Part shown: in pieces, positions 22,177 to 29,422 of the stretch | Layout: every line of letters begins with the position of its first letter | Numbering within the stretch: the first letter of the stretch is position 1 | Sequence record: NC_048195.1 | DNA from: Escherichia phage vB_EcoM_WFC | Direction: 5' to 3' (one strand) | Length of the DNA stretch: 64,000 nucleotides | The notes under the pieces: model-generated | The model's input: only the letters and a program-made list of their open reading frames with translations | What the model was told of the DNA's origin: nothing | Database searches by the model: none | Translations under genes and position numbers: made by a program

Positions 22177-22233
22177 AATATTGCTTATAGACTCCTTATA
22201 GATTATAATTTGTTGATCAGATATAAGGAGTCT

Positions 22234-22962
22234 ATGATGGCAGAAAAGTTAACCCAACTTACAAGCCCCAACCAAACTGACAAATCAAGTATGTTTGCCG
22301 CGCTGCAGGGAATGCTGGACCGTGGCAAGTATACCACTGACGGCATGATTCCTGCACAAGTAATATCTTATGACCGCAAACAGAATTTAGCAGTCATAAA
22401 GCCTGTTATTCATTTCGTAAGTCTTGATGATAGACCAGTGGAGCGTCAACCACTGGTGTCAATTCCTGTATTGGCAATCGGCGGCGGCGGCTTCGTAATC
22501 AACTTTCCTCTGAAAGAGGGTGATTTGGGCTGGATATTCGCTGGCGACCGCGAGTTGTCGACATTCCTTGAAGAATTGAAGCCGACCGCGCCTACCAATG
22601 GCCGCGCGAAAACTTTCGCTGATGGACTGTTCATACCGGATGTATTTAGAAAATACACCATAAGCGGAGAGGATGCAGGCTCAATGGTAATCCAGTCACT
22701 CAGCGGCGCTGTCCGCATTGCATTAAGTGATGACTCGATAAACATAACTGCATCGGCTGGAGTAAATGTGAAAACACCAATAACCACTATCGACCAACAA
22801 TTGATAGTTAATGGAAAGGCAACGTTCAATGGTGGTATAGAAGGGAAAGAAGGAACGACGGCAACGCTTCCGACTGGCACAACAATCGGCGGCACAAATG
22901 TATCCACTCACGGTCACATAGGTAACGGACCTGGAAACAGAACTGGGGATATGATAGAATGA
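22234..22962 (+). CDS. putative baseplate central spike-like protein
   Basis: AAGGAG RBS before ATG 22234; Gly-rich C-terminal end with HGH motif (STHGHIGNGPGN); position before the baseplate J-like gene. Confidence 0.4.
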   Translation: MMAEKLTQLTSPNQTDKSSMFAALQGMLDRGKYTTDGMIPAQVISYDRKQNLAVIKPVIHFVSLDDRPVERQPLVSIPVLAIGGGGFVINFPLKEGDLGWIFAGDRELSTFLEELKPTAPTNGRAKTFADGLFIPDVFRKYTISGEDAGSMVIQSLSGAVRIALSDDSINITASAGVNVKTPITTIDQQLIVNGKATFNGGIEGKEGTTATLPTGTTIGGTNVSTHGHIGNGPGNRTGDMIE

Positions 22963-24236: not shown

Positions 24237-24509
24237 ATGCAAAAGTTTGACACAAACCTGTTGCAAAACCTTAAGTGGATGCAGAACAATGCGCCAAACA
24301 TCACATCTTTGGTGCAAAAGAAAAGTGACTGGTATGAAAGATACCAAGATCAGTTTTGGACTGACTGGTACAATAACATTTTTAACATTGACACTTGTGA
24401 TGCAATGGGCATTTATATTTGGTGCGACATTCTTTGCATACCAAGAGACTTTGTGGACTTAAGCAATTATGAGCACAACTGGGCGTTTGGACCGACGCGA
24501 CAACTTTGA
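24237..24509 (+). CDS. hypothetical protein / possible N-terminal fragment of a frame-shifted fibre or wedge gene
   Basis: 90 aa ORF followed by two further ORFs in the other two frames within 400 nt. Confidence 0.35.
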   Translation: MQKFDTNLLQNLKWMQNNAPNITSLVQKKSDWYERYQDQFWTDWYNNIFNIDTCDAMGIYIWCDILCIPRDFVDLSNYEHNWAFGPTRQL

Positions 24510-24616
24510 AGGTGCGGACAACATCGGCGGCAACTTCTTTGGTGCTGGCGGGAAGGTTGTAAAGAATATCGAAGAAGCACGCATACTTCTTAAGCTTCGT
24601 TATCTGACGCTCACAA

Positions 24617-26974
24617 GTGATGGCCGCATCGAAAGTATCAACCGCATGCTTAAGTGGATTTTCAACCGTGGAGAGGCTTGGGATTACTCTTCATCACGCT
24701 ACGCATACGTGGACCGACAACACTCAAGGCGCAGTATCTTCATCTGAATCAACAAATGGATCATTCCTTCTATACGACTGGCAGGGGTCAACTGAGATTC
24801 AGCACGATTATAAGCAGATACTTTTAAGCCATGGCAACAACGCCGGACTGACTATCAGCGGAGTGTCAGGCACCGTGTCACGGATGGCGCATCCAGATTG
24901 GTACTCATGGGGGAATGGTTCCGGCACAGGTCTTGTCGGCGGCGACACAAGACAGTATGGCGGCCCTGATTACTATGGGCAGTTGTGTGGCGATTACCCA
25001 GGTGAGGCAATAGAGAATTTTGCCAACGCAGTAAGGGTCGTCAAGACGGCTTCAAGCGGTGAGCCTGTGTATTCTTTGGCCAATAATCCAAGCGCACAGT
25101 CAATTGCCCTTCCTTCGCAGGCTGGCGTTAACGTTTGCTATAGCTTCTACATAAAGGTGCTTTCTGAAAACGTCGCTTCTGTTTCTGTTACAGAGAATAG
25201 TGATGCATCGAGTAATGGAAAGCTGTTTGACCCCGTCACTGGCCAGTTCAACTTGGACCCGTCATTGAGCTATTTCATCAAAGGTAAATTCGATGGAGTA
25301 AGAAGGGAATCAAACCGTGGTGGCATAAAAGCAATTGGCGGCGATTGGTATCGAATCTGGATTGTAGAGCAGACGGCAACCGCTGCTTCTGGAGTAAGTA
25401 CCAGCTTTTCAATAGAGTTGAAGGCGACTGCCGCTGGATCAACTCAAACTCGTGAATTGCCTGAAGGGTCTGATGCTCTTTTGTTTGGATACTCGATTTG
25501 CGTCTGCGACCCTGTTCAGAATCCAAATGGACCTGAGCCTTATTTTTATGGAACGCAAAACCCTCCTTCTGACGGAACAGCAATCCTGTCTGTAACGGCG
25601 GGAACGCTCAATAACATCTCCTGTGCAAACGGACCGCTGACGACAAGAAACGGTGTAGTTGGCGAGTCATTCATGCAACCTGGCTCATCACTTGCATACT
25701 CTGGCTCAATCGGTGGCTACCCGTACCCAGGGAACGCCACGCTGATTGCAGAGACTGATGGAATCAGACGCTCATGGAACGTTAGCAGGCTGGATGGAGT
25801 ACCGCCGCCGCCGACCGCCGACTATTACATGGAATACGTCATCGGACCTTATTTCGCCAACAACCTGTCTGACAACTTTAAGACGCTAGTTGGCGACAGG
25901 AATGAAGGATTCTTGCCAGCAAATGCCGGAATACGCTGGCAGCTTTACCAAGAAGTCGCAGACTTATCTGATATCGATTTGACTGTCAACGACATAACAG
26001 ACACGCGCGTAGGATTTGAAACGGAAGGTGTTGCGTGGATTAACACTGACGGTATCATTAGAGTTGGCGGCATCAACGAGTGGCCGCTGAACAACTTCAA
26101 CGGTGTGATACGCCAGCTTGAATCTTTGAAAGGTGTAAACCAGGTCGTCGACGGCGCACTTGTCAACGACTATTCAATCTCAAAAGCATCAAGAGATGAC
26201 TTTGGTCGTGAAATACCACGCGCGGCAATCACTAACTATTGGCGCTACACACAGCCAAACGACGGTACATCTTTTGGCAATATCATTGAGGATGGCGCAA
26301 ACACTGTCACAGCTACGCCAATCAGCGGTGTGCCCAACCAGTTCCCATCATTCAAGCTTTCCGCTACAATAGGGACTGTGCCAGCGTCCGGTTATGCACG
26401 CGCTGTACTTGCTACTAAATACACTGGCACCCTGACTGGCCCTTTGTCATTTATCGCAATAGTCAAAAACAACACGGTTAACGGTCAAAAACTTTTTGTA
26501 ACTGTACCGGATGGGATGGGTGGCTATATCCCTAAATTCTACAACATAGGCGCAGGTGATTTGCAACGTATCGAAATTGACCTTGCCGCTGAGATTGTTG
26601 AAGGCGCTACCTGGGATGGATCAACAGGCGGCATCAGCATCGGTTTGATATCAGGGAAAGACTTGCCGACCGAAGTTGGTACGACTCTTGAACTTGATAT
26701 TTTAAGCTTGATGCTTGTGTCTGGTAGTACGATGAATGCGCTTGCAATTTCAACAAGCGAAGATTTCGCAAAGAAAACTGCGACTTCTATATACATCAAA
26801 AACCCAGGATCACTTGCCACTGGAGTTCAACTGATTGCTTCTAATGGTGATGTTGTAGCAACAGTAAACTTTCCGAGAAGTGCTGCTGGTGGTTATGTTT
26901 CAAGCATGAACATAACTGACTTAACTGGTGATTGGGCAACAACCCTTTTGTCAAAAATTAAATACATCGTGTAG
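24617..26974 (+). CDS. tail fibre protein
   Basis: 785 aa, Gly/Ser/Thr-rich, downstream of baseplate genes. Start is uncertain because an upstream reading frame continues into this gene. Confidence 0.55.
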   Translation: MMAASKVSTACLSGFSTVERLGITLHHATHTWTDNTQGAVSSSESTNGSFLLYDWQGSTEIQHDYKQILLSHGNNAGLTISGVSGTVSRMAHPDWYSWGNGSGTGLVGGDTRQYGGPDYYGQLCGDYPGEAIENFANAVRVVKTASSGEPVYSLANNPSAQSIALPSQAGVNVCYSFYIKVLSENVASVSVTENSDASSNGKLFDPVTGQFNLDPSLSYFIKGKFDGVRRESNRGGIKAIGGDWYRIWIVEQTATAASGVSTSFSIELKATAAGSTQTRELPEGSDALLFGYSICVCDPVQNPNGPEPYFYGTQNPPSDGTAILSVTAGTLNNISCANGPLTTRNGVVGESFMQPGSSLAYSGSIGGYPYPGNATLIAETDGIRRSWNVSRLDGVPPPPTADYYMEYVIGPYFANNLSDNFKTLVGDRNEGFLPANAGIRWQLYQEVADLSDIDLTVNDITDTRVGFETEGVAWINTDGIIRVGGINEWPLNNFNGVIRQLESLKGVNQVVDGALVNDYSISKASRDDFGREIPRAAITNYWRYTQPNDGTSFGNIIEDGANTVTATPISGVPNQFPSFKLSATIGTVPASGYARAVLATKYTGTLTGPLSFIAIVKNNTVNGQKLFVTVPDGMGGYIPKFYNIGAGDLQRIEIDLAAEIVEGATWDGSTGGISIGLISGKDLPTEVGTTLELDILSLMLVSGSTMNALAISTSEDFAKKTATSIYIKNPGSLATGVQLIASNGDVVATVNFPRSAAGGYVSSMNITDLTGDWATTLLSKIKYIV

Positions 26975-26984
26975 AGGAACGGCA

Positions 26985-28769
26985 ATGCCAACACTTATTA
27001 ACAGACCTTTCGCGCAAAGCGGTGATGTATCCGTGGTGCCGGATGCAAGTCCAAGCGGTTATGTGAACTTCCAGCGCGGCTACACCCCTGACTATGCACT
27101 TGCGCTGGAAGCCGGAAACGTCGCCGCGAAAGCAGTTGAACGTGAGTCGATGAACTGGTTGCTGAATCTGATCACCGACAACCTTATGTTCATCCAGGAC
27201 CACGGCGCTCAACAGTATTTCTCGTCTGACTTGAAGCCAGATGGATACCCGAAAAATGCCATCGTTGTCAGCAACTCCGGCACCCCTTCAGCGCCTGAAT
27301 GGCGCATTTTCCAGAGTGTGGTAGACGGCAACACCAGCGCAGTCCCAGCTAACGGCGAAACGGAATCTTGGCAGGAATTGACGCTGCCTAGCGAAGCGCG
27401 AAAATATATTCCTATGCCTGCTGGCGGCGATGCGCAAAACCCGTATTTTGTTCGCGGACTGATTTCAAACTTTGTGGACTTTGATAATATCACGACTTCC
27501 ACAACTATTGTTATTCAATCTGACGCAGTCGCCGCTCTCTGCTCTAACATCCCGAACGCGGTTGGTGCGACGAAGGTTGCAGGTCGTCTCCAGGTTTGCG
27601 CTTGGCAGGTTAATGCGCAGACTTTCGCCCTGCAACAATACACGTCAATGAACGGATATGTTTTCACCCGCTCTTATACTTCTGGTGCCTGGAGTGCCTG
27701 GATTCAAAATGCTACTGTTCAAGACGTGCAAATTGGAACGCCGAATCTTGCATCAGGTAAAGGCGCACAAGATATAATCCTTACCGTTCCAGCAGGTTAT
27801 TCATGGCCTCCGTCAGCAGGTAGTCGCCTGACCATCATTAATGATGTCACGACCACCGGACCTGTCACCGTGACCATTGGTGCAAACAAAGTTGCAGTCC
27901 TTGGATTCGACGGCGGCGAGCTGCCAGCAGGGTCCATCGTCGGGCTTCTTCCTTTTACTATTATTTATGACGGCACCGTTTGGCGTCTTCTTCAAGCATT
28001 CGGCGCGGCGCAAATCGGTGTCGATGCTAGTGAGCCGCAACAGTTTGTTACAAAGCGCCAACTCGATGCTTTGGCCGCGAAGTTGATCACTATGGGTGAT
28101 GTGTTCGAAGTCGGTGAGACTCGATTCTTGACTAATGGCACCAACCCAAATACTAAACTGGGCGCTTACGGTCAGGTATGGACCAGGTTGCCTGATAACA
28201 TGGTCATCAGGACGTCTGGCACGGCAAGAAACGGTCTTGACACTGGAGGTGCAGACTCTGTTACTCTTACCGCCGCCATGCTTCCTCTCCACAATCACAG
28301 CGTGGACATCACTACGCGACAAAGTGGTCCATGGTCCAATACCACTGGAGACGCAGGCAACCATAACCACACAGGCGATACTAGTCAGAACGGTGCTCAC
28401 GTGCACGGAATGGATGCCGCTGGTAATCATTATCACGACAGTGGCTGGGGTGAGGCTTATGCAGACCAGGCTAGATACGGGGTATATGATGGCACGCACA
28501 ATAACCTTGGAAGTGCAAGATCTGATTATGACAACTATAAATACAACACCTCAACTAACGGCAACCACGTTCACAATATTCAATCTTCTGGGTCACACAC
28601 TCATGGGTTGAATATAAATTACGCTGGCAATCACAGCCATGGATATACCCTCCCCGCTCACACTCACGATGTGGTCGGTAACACTGGCGATGCAGGGCAG
28701 TCCGTCCCAACGGCTGTTTCAACTCTGCCGCGATATGTCGTCTTGAACGGCTGGTACAGAAGCGCATAA
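26985..28769 (+). CDS. tail fibre protein with C-terminal HxH metal-binding repeats (receptor-binding tip)
   Basis: GAGGAAC RBS before ATG 26985; eight His-x-His motifs in the last ~130 aa (HNH, HNH, HVH, HYH, HVH, HTH, HSH, HTH). Confidence 0.65.
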   Translation: MPTLINRPFAQSGDVSVVPDASPSGYVNFQRGYTPDYALALEAGNVAAKAVERESMNWLLNLITDNLMFIQDHGAQQYFSSDLKPDGYPKNAIVVSNSGTPSAPEWRIFQSVVDGNTSAVPANGETESWQELTLPSEARKYIPMPAGGDAQNPYFVRGLISNFVDFDNITTSTTIVIQSDAVAALCSNIPNAVGATKVAGRLQVCAWQVNAQTFALQQYTSMNGYVFTRSYTSGAWSAWIQNATVQDVQIGTPNLASGKGAQDIILTVPAGYSWPPSAGSRLTIINDVTTTGPVTVTIGANKVAVLGFDGGELPAGSIVGLLPFTIIYDGTVWRLLQAFGAAQIGVDASEPQQFVTKRQLDALAAKLITMGDVFEVGETRFLTNGTNPNTKLGAYGQVWTRLPDNMVIRTSGTARNGLDTGGADSVTLTAAMLPLHNHSVDITTRQSGPWSNTTGDAGNHNHTGDTSQNGAHVHGMDAAGNHYHDSGWGEAYADQARYGVYDGTHNNLGSARSDYDNYKYNTSTNGNHVHNIQSSGSHTHGLNINYAGNHSHGYTLPAHTHDVVGNTGDAGQSVPTAVSTLPRYVVLNGWYRSA

Positions 28770-28777
28770 GGTGATTT

Positions 28778-29422
28778 ATGATTAATGCAAACGTAATATC
28801 TAAAGGGACCGGATGCAGCATGGATGTTGCTGAAAAATGGGTCGACCCCTTCAAGCAGGCTTGTGAGCACTACGGAATCAAAAGCAAGAATGCCATCGCG
28901 GCGCTGCTTGCAAACGTAGGAGTGGAAACAGGCAGCCTGAAGACCTTTGTGGAAAACCTGAATTATTCCGCTCAAGGTCTTGCTAATACGTGGCCTAGCC
29001 GTTACAGCGCCAGCGGTCGTTTCGGTGGCGCACCAAACTCCTTGGCATTGTCGATTGCCCGTAAACCAATGGAAATCGCCAATAATACATATGCAAACCG
29101 AATGGGAAATGGTTCGGTAGCATCTGGCGACGGTTGGAAGTACCGTGGCCGTGGTGCCATTCAGCTGACTGGAAAGGCTAACTATGCAGAGTATTCAAAG
29201 CAATCAGGGTATGACGCATTGAATAACCCTGACATTTTGACTGAGCCGAAATACATCGCTGACAGCGCGGCGTGGTTCTTCAAGAACAGCGGTTGCATTC
29301 CACTTGCCGATGCGGGTGCATTTGATTCGACCGTGAAGCGGATTAACGGGGCCGCGCCGAATACGGCTAACCATGGGGATTTGCGACGGAAGCGTTACAA
29401 GGATGTACTAGCAGTCATGTAA
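28778..29422 (+). CDS. endolysin, glycoside hydrolase family 19 (chitinase-like)
   Basis: 214 aa; AAGGTGA RBS; GDGWKYRGRGAIQLTGKANY block typical of GH19 lysozymes; no signal peptide or TM segment. Confidence 0.8.
   Translation: MINANVISKGTGCSMDVAEKWVDPFKQACEHYGIKSKNAIAALLANVGVETGSLKTFVENLNYSAQGLANTWPSRYSASGRFGGAPNSLALSIARKPMEIANNTYANRMGNGSVASGDGWKYRGRGAIQLTGKANYAEYSKQSGYDALNNPDILTEPKYIADSAAWFFKNSGCIPLADAGAFDSTVKRINGAAPNTANHGDLRRKRYKDVLAVM

Follow-up and report, generated by a model that had tools for sequence, protein, structure and literature searches.

A Wifcevirus tail fibre with a predicted T4 gp37-type His-x-His tip that is probably not the main determinant of host range

What kind of tail fibre ends in a run of eight His-x-His (HxH) motifs, and is such a tip the part of a phage that decides which host it infects? 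The question is raised by a stretch of 64,000 nucleotides from Escherichia phage vB_EcoM_WFC (NC_048195.1), referred to here as the window, in which a tail-fibre gene at 26985..28769 on the + strand encodes 594 amino acids (aa) followed by a stop codon. The gene product is the conserved ‘second’ fibre of Wifcevirus phages, orthologous to Bas99_0031 and Bas100_0031, and a sequence-only reading had taken its stretch at 28288-28675 for a metal-coordinating, receptor-binding fibre tip and the likely host-range determinant. Here, we argue that the Wifcevirus fibre is very probably a chimera, in which an anchor and shaft of the Pbunavirus gp47 type (aa 1-372) carry a tip of the T4 gp37 type (aa 373-594), composed of collar, needle and head and predicted to form a metal-stapled trimer, and that the HxH fibre is probably not the main host-range determinant.

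All eight motifs are present as the sequence-only reading had listed them, and all fall within 28288-28675. In the translation of the fibre gene they are, on the + strand, HNH at aa 436 (nt 28290-28298, in PLHNH), HNH at aa 460 (nt 28362-28370, GNHNH), HVH at aa 472 (nt 28398-28406, GAHVH), HYH at aa 482 (nt 28428-28436, GNHYH), HVH at aa 528 (nt 28566-28574, GNHVH), HTH at aa 538 (nt 28596-28604, GSHTH), HSH at aa 550 (nt 28632-28640, GNHSH) and HTH at aa 559 (nt 28659-28667, PAHTH). The Gly/Asn/Thr-rich context also holds, with Ser and His added (21 Gly, 18 Asn, 17 Thr, 17 His and 16 Ser in the last 170 residues), and the C-terminal placement needs one correction: the motifs occupy aa 436-561, and a further 33 residues follow them, returning to the collar. 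This same segment of 126 aa contains 17 of the 18 histidines of the protein. When the whole protein was shuffled 100,000 times, the mean was 0.52 HxH, the maximum five, and none of the shuffles reached eight; shuffling the His-rich last 170 aa gave a mean of 1.6, with 2 in 100,000 reaching eight. No other open reading frame (ORF) of the window has more than two such motifs.

Orthologues of the fibre were drawn from GenBank phage records and IMG/VR, a first database search with the tip having returned 14 distant homologues and no Wifcevirus orthologue. Variation among 13 of these orthologues spares all 16 histidines of the motifs and affects three of the eight x positions as well as H505, the sole histidine of the region that lies outside a motif. 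This pattern fits histidines that face the core and x residues that face outwards. Motif 4 (aa 482-484) reads HYH in the window, in ECML-117 and in one IMG/VR contig, and HHH in the ten other orthologues examined; a comparable additional histidine (HHxH) stands beside the head in Bas63.

The motifs are spaced with mirror symmetry about the head, at 24, 12 and 10 aa before it, 46 aa across it and 10, 12 and 9 aa after it, and the outermost pair are both LPxHxH, whereas the six inner motifs are GxHxH. A homologue from Xenorhabdus (P0001) lacks exactly 22 aa, with two HxH motifs, from each arm, and in three metagenomic homologues (P0003, P0009 and P0012) each arm is longer by a matching insertion of ~30 aa. 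Of the 152 members of the family that have four or more motifs, 89% have arms whose motif counts are equal or one apart, compared with 29% for a random split (maximum 45% in 5000 simulations), and mirrored spacings agree to within 1 aa in 82% of 378 pairs, compared with 50% when shuffled. As far as sequence comparison can establish it, the chain is thus shown to run down the needle and back up again, with its arms in register.

The tip can be divided on the + strand into five segments. The N-terminal part of the collar (aa 373-435, nt 28101..28289), of the T4 gp10 C-terminal or gp37 D10 type, matches the profile of the gp10 entry 2fkk (E 5.7e-7). It leads into the descending needle arm with HxH 1-4 (aa 436-484, nt 28290..28436), which aligns to the gp37 needle, and then into a head (tip) insert of 43 aa (aa 485-527, nt 28437..28565), which includes seven aromatic residues and is placed by analogy with residues 932-959 of T4 gp37. 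The ascending arm with HxH 5-8 (aa 528-561, nt 28566..28667) mirrors the descending one, and the chain ends with the return to the collar (aa 562-594, nt 28668..28766; GNTG...WYRSA), a C-terminal strand common to gp10 and gp37 in which GNTG and W-R-A are conserved throughout the family.

The claimed homology to the receptor-binding tip of T4 gp37 was borne out by several kinds of search. By BLASTP, the tip is 31% identical to gp37 residues 801-1026 over 109 aa, a match that spans HxH 2-7 (E 7e-5), and hhalign of the family profile against the same residues gave a probability of 98.6% (E 5.4e-16). When a profile built from homologues was run with hmmsearch against all PDB sequences, the gp37 tip (2xgf) came first (E 1.1e-9), followed by the entries for the T4 gp10 C-terminal domain (2fkk, 5hx2 and 2fl8; E 6e-7 to 1e-5), a domain whose matches lie in the part of the tip that precedes HxH 1 and in its final 19 residues. 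With full-length gp37 as tblastn query, this tip was the sole match in the whole window, and distant tip homologues (25-37% identity) carry the Pfam domains Gp10_C and Phage_fiber. The tip thus shares with gp37 not only similarity to its needle but also a D10-type collar of the gp10/gp11/gp12/gp37 kind, split by the inserted needle, and GxHxH motifs in register on the descending and ascending arms. The family is large: at E<=1e-3 its profile, in which the collar and some N-terminal regions are also included, detects 32,351 clusters in a set of 1.84 billion representatives, and at least four HxH motifs were present in 152 of the 164 members examined. HxH needles are therefore very common, and a new instance is in itself unsurprising.

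The other end of the protein has a different relative. The baseplate anchor and proximal shaft (aa 1-372, nt 26985..28100, + strand) are homologous to gp47 of Pseudomonas phage Pa193, with aa 2-372 matching gp47 residues 4-368 (PDB 9b45, E 7.7e-32). In Pa193, a gp47 loop of residues 38-52 docks via I41 and L43 onto the baseplate protein gp46 (Pa193 paper), and these two residues align with L39 and L41 of the fibre, so that the homology of ~370 aa includes the gp46-docking loop. Residues 1-133 are invariant in the 13 orthologues, and the start MPTLINRP is identical in all annotated orthologues of the fibre. Pbunaviruses match aa 2-376 only.

How such a fibre might work can be outlined from the structure and mutagenesis of T4 gp37, the cryo-electron microscopy (cryo-EM) of the Bas63 fibres and the published multimer model for Bas99. 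The gp37 tip consists of a D10 collar with an inserted stem and a small tip subdomain inserted distally, and has seven HxH motifs and seven iron ions held by triplets from three chains (PMC6957217). H929A and H931A are lethal in gp37, whose tip subdomain, located between the two arms, binds lipopolysaccharide (LPS) and OmpC and sets receptor specificity (PMC6957217). GxHxH binds iron in gp37, pyocin fibres and spike proteins (PMC6957217, PMC6116203). For the Bas99 orthologue, AlphaFold-Multimer predicts a gp37-like trimeric tip with conserved HxH motifs (PMC11990801), and cryo-EM has revealed a collar, an HxH needle and a head in both fibres of the Felixounavirus Bas63 (PMC12609058). By analogy, the collar of the Wifcevirus fibre (aa 373-435 and 562-594) would be split by the inserted needle, with the head inserted at the needle's turn, and six strands of a homotrimer would form the long β needle. 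At each of eight axial levels, the two histidines of one (G/P)xHxH per chain would be brought together from three chains into an octahedral His6 site, each holding a metal ion, presumably iron as in gp37, and the histidines would act as staples for the folding and rigidity of the needle. The head, and not the histidines, would contact the cell surface, most likely at a conserved secondary receptor (such as LPS core or an outer-membrane protein), while O-antigen would be recognised by a separate, variable T-shaped fibre. The earlier description of a receptor-binding tip thus stands in so far as the tip is of the gp37 type, and shifts in its detail: the HxH stretch is the structural stem, and receptor contact is predicted in the head. 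It follows that 28288-28675 pinpoints the scaffold rather than the determinant.

The head differs from the remainder of the fibre in how it varies. Among the 13 orthologues, 35% of its columns vary, compared with 0-6% in anchor, shaft and collar, and at least three to four head allele types can be distinguished; the window has allele ‘A’, shared with ECML-117 and SP13, whereas D441 is unique to the window. Compared with Bas100 and FEC19, a recombinant cassette of ~aa 471-519 (28395..28541, + strand) has 65-82% DNA identity, with 95-100% upstream and 100% downstream of it; for the codons of aa 1-372, identity to either phage is 97.8-98.4%, and for those of aa 528-594 it is 100%, and the head itself has 77% nucleotide identity inside a gene that is otherwise 98-100% identical. 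Nonsynonymous divergence (dN) in the head is 0.11, ~10 times that of the shaft, and synonymous divergence (dS) ~1.5, compared with 0.3-0.4 in the flanks, giving a dN/dS of 0.07 within a range of 0.02-0.08 throughout the fibre gene. The heads of the window and ECML-117 are identical as proteins and only 84% identical as DNA. Judged from these alignments, the head is a recombining cassette of old alleles, each under strong purifying selection, which is the sole new nuance of this analysis. The closest non-phage homologue of the tip, P0001 of Xenorhabdus bovienii (contig JBPFGP010000006.1, 6001-6933; 37% identity, 2+2 HxH), has a head that is 60-70% conserved with that of the window (~65% identical). 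Its gene stands alone in a genomic island, where its neighbours are an AlpA-like gene, SrfB, a transposase and DndB and no further tail genes occur nearby; the genomic context of this orphan was uninformative as to receptor or chaperone.

Several points weigh against the chimera reading with a gp37-type tip and have to be set beside the evidence for it. Pfam searches with the full protein and with the tip returned no match even at E<=10 (Collar PF07484, Phage_fiber PF03335, Gp10_C PF21939), phmmer of the tip alone against PDB returned nothing, and in these searches it was only profiles built from homologues that linked the tip to gp37 and gp10. Compositional bias is heavy in the profile scores for gp37 (bias 53.8), with a best-stretch E of 1.1e-6, a caveat that attaches to the similarity to the gp37 needle as a whole. 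No gp38-like chaperone is found within the window (tblastn of T4 gp38, best E 0.68), none lies between the fibre and the lysis gene, and the gene next to the fibre encodes a GH19 endolysin, so that assembly differs from that in T4. For this fibre, moreover, we infer the trimer geometry, the binding and identity of the metal and the receptor from the analogies given above. Lastly, that the head cassette recombines argues against a simple binder of an invariant secondary receptor. AlphaFold2 monomer models of the tip failed for the needle: the mean predicted local distance difference test (pLDDT) score was 40 with 15 sequences (needle 31-35) and 60 with 62 sequences (needle 42-55). In the second model, the collar reached 73-87 in the first 40 residues and then 57-73, and the C-terminal strand 75-88, the first 40 and the last ~15 residues being acceptable. 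A gp12-type domain was considered for the tip and rejected: gp12 is absent from the PDB profile matches (E<=1), so that no similarity to the head of the gp12 short-tail-fibre receptor-binding domain was detected in that search, and the tip has eight motifs as opposed to one.

Whether the tip chooses the host has to be judged against the second fibre of these phages. Across 26 Wifcevirus records the HxH fibre protein is 95.1-98.1% identical, and the isolation hosts of the phages concerned were O157:H7, K-12 with O16, Shigella and extended-spectrum β-lactamase (ESBL) strains. The T-shaped fibre (Bas99_0109), which is without HxH motifs, shows only 55-92% identity among the same phages and has undergone module swaps, the distal module of SP13 and F13 being a different one. 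Bas98-101 are totally dependent on the O16 O-antigen (Humolli et al., PMC11990801), and the variable receptor-binding domains on the T-shaped fibre (gp12-like, T5-like) are the candidate O-antigen binder, and ‘a more mechanical role’ is suggested for the conserved HxH fibre (PMC11990801; conservation in S9B Fig). The Bas99 T-shaped fibre protein finds nothing in the window by tblastn; its gene belongs to ~4.9 kb of the genome outside it (Bas99 62575-67450, with Bas99_0109 at 64575-66908), and the sequence-only reading could therefore not have seen it. With one fibre conserved and the other both variable and the published candidate binder, calling the HxH tip ‘the host-range determinant’ is not the best reading.

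One extension of the gp37-type reading, which we put forward tentatively and consider doubtful, is that the head of the ‘conserved’ Wifcevirus fibre recognises a secondary receptor that is itself polymorphic (LPS core types, for instance, or an outer-membrane protein). Host range would in that case be set jointly by this fibre and the T-shaped fibre that is specific for O-antigen. A fibre of purely mechanical function, as suggested by Humolli et al., would have no discriminating receptor specificity and would serve mainly for positioning or for triggering the baseplate. The very high conservation across the genus and the low dN/dS throughout the gene agree with this suggestion, whereas head alleles that are deeply diverged in dS, recombine and are each conserved are hard to explain without a ligand; the richness of the head in aromatic residues (7 of 43) also speaks against it, and the conservation shared with the Xenorhabdus fibre suggests a specific, widely shared target. 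We therefore regard a purely mechanical fibre as unlikely.

That the tip is the phage's host-range determinant, such that exchanging or mutating it would retarget the phage, draws on the same head: by far the most variable segment of the protein, it is swapped by recombination between otherwise near-identical genes, its alleles are each under purifying selection (as the window and ECML-117 illustrate), and the equivalent subdomain of T4 sets receptor specificity. Against this stand the near-uniformity of the whole protein over phages from so many hosts, the O16 dependence of Bas98-101 with the T-shaped fibre as published candidate, and the fact that head alleles do not track isolation host, since FEC19 (B) and ECML-117 (A) both grow on O157:H7, and Bas99 (A') and Bas100 (B) on K-12 O16. 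We consider it improbable that the tip is the determinant. Finally, the idea that the motifs simply reflect a low-complexity repeat rich in G, N, S, T and H and bind no metal accords with the biased composition, with the high bias in the profile scores and with metal binding in this fibre being argued from analogy, and is scarcely credible given that only 14 in 100,000 shuffles within the His-rich 131 aa reach eight motifs, that the motif histidines are invariant where the x residues and the non-motif histidine vary, that arm balance and mirrored spacing hold across the homologues, and that GxHxH binds iron in other fibres and spikes; chance composition was rejected on the same shuffles, invariance and symmetry. 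The reading of the fibre as an anchor of the gp47 type with a metal-stapled tip of the gp37 type is the one we favour.

The surroundings of the gene are those of a Wifcevirus, an E. coli myophage. At the DNA level, the fibre gene is 86-96% identical to 27 GenBank phage records, essentially all of them Wifcevirus, including SP13, F13, FEC19, vB_Eco4M-7, ECML-117, WFH and the BASEL phages Bas98-101, and the protein matches phrog_5717 ‘tail protein’ (E 1e-175). The gene order is as in Bas100 and Bas99: baseplate spike, baseplate wedge (Baseplate_J), a 912-aa protein, the fibre and the GH19 endolysin. A Shine-Dalgarno sequence, GAGG (26974..26977, + strand), precedes the ATG of the fibre by 7 nt and overlaps the stop codon of the upstream gene, and the endolysin gene (28778-29422, + strand; chitinase class I-like) begins 8 nt past the fibre stop codon. 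The upstream gene, a single coding sequence for 912 aa in Bas100, Bas99 and other relatives, is split in the window into three ORFs (24237-26974) by two frameshifts relative to both Bas100 and Bas99, namely the loss of 2 bp from a CGCGCG run near 24495 and the gain of one G at 24711, and its remainder is 99% identical to the relatives. Its product is the positional counterpart of Pa193 gp46, the docking site of the fibre. These frameshifts are most likely sequencing or assembly errors; it would be surprising for an apparently essential baseplate gene to be a true pseudogene. Further upstream, the ORF of the baseplate spike (22177-22962, + strand) has a single HxH motif (STHGHIG) at aa 245, near its C-terminus, reminiscent of the iron-binding apex in the spikes P2 gpV, Mu gp45 and Sf14 gp47 and in that of Bas63.

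For annotation, these results identify a ‘tail protein’ or ‘hypothetical protein’ as a gp37-type fibre. For the engineering of host range, they suggest leaving the HxH needle intact, the relevant sites being the 43-aa head and, above all, the T-shaped fibre. Wifcevirus phages infect O157:H7 among other hosts and reportedly replicate very fast. The mosaic of the head cassette is a small new observation that qualifies the published suggestion of a mechanical role.

Among known systems, the likeness to Pa193 (Pbunavirus) gp47 is restricted to the N-terminal 372 aa, the distal part of this 962-aa protein being unrelated and without an HxH needle. T4 gp12 and the gp10 C-terminal domain share the collar fold family with the fibre, and neither has a long needle; gp10, the second-best PDB match, has no HxH run. 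The statement that HxH repeats bind iron in both gp37 and gp12 is correct for gp37, whereas in gp12 there is a single HxH site, and the crystal shows zinc in it (PMC6116203). T4 gp37 (2XGF) resembles the fibre tip in its collar split by the needle, its head at the turn, the GxHxH motifs on both arms and the C-terminal GNTG...R.A. It differs in having seven motifs (3+4) and a head of 28 aa, compared with eight (4+4) and 43 aa here, the heads being unrelated in sequence and the tips only 24-31% identical; moreover, the gp37 tip ends a fibre of four proteins, whereas the Wifcevirus tip is carried on a single 594-aa protein with a Pbunavirus-type anchor of 372 aa. Outside the genus, the characterised proteins nearest to the tip, with ~28-35% identity over all 226 aa, are the fibres of Felixounavirus and Mooglevirus (Bas63 gp26 and gp27, Sf14 gp53 and Felix O1), phages that have two fibres and are without a fibre chaperone. 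Felixounavirus fibres, at ~30% identity, are also the nearest phage matches beyond Wifcevirus. In the Felixounavirus-like Sf14, the longer fibre has a gp37-like tip and there is no gp38-type chaperone. These fibres have other N-terminal anchors and shafts, six or seven motifs and other head sequences; a likeness to the Felix O1 fibre is already mentioned in the Mansfield record. Within the genus, the orthologues (‘Gp32’ of ManiWeber/Bas99, Bas99_0031, and those of FEC19, ECML-117, WFH and SP13) have equal length, the same gene order, all eight HxH motifs and 95-98% identity, and mostly read HHH at motif 4, where the window has HYH, together with head allele ‘A’ and D441. The HxH tip is thus already known, having been published for near-identical phages, and the sequence-only reading, structurally correct, over-interpreted it as the determinant of host range.

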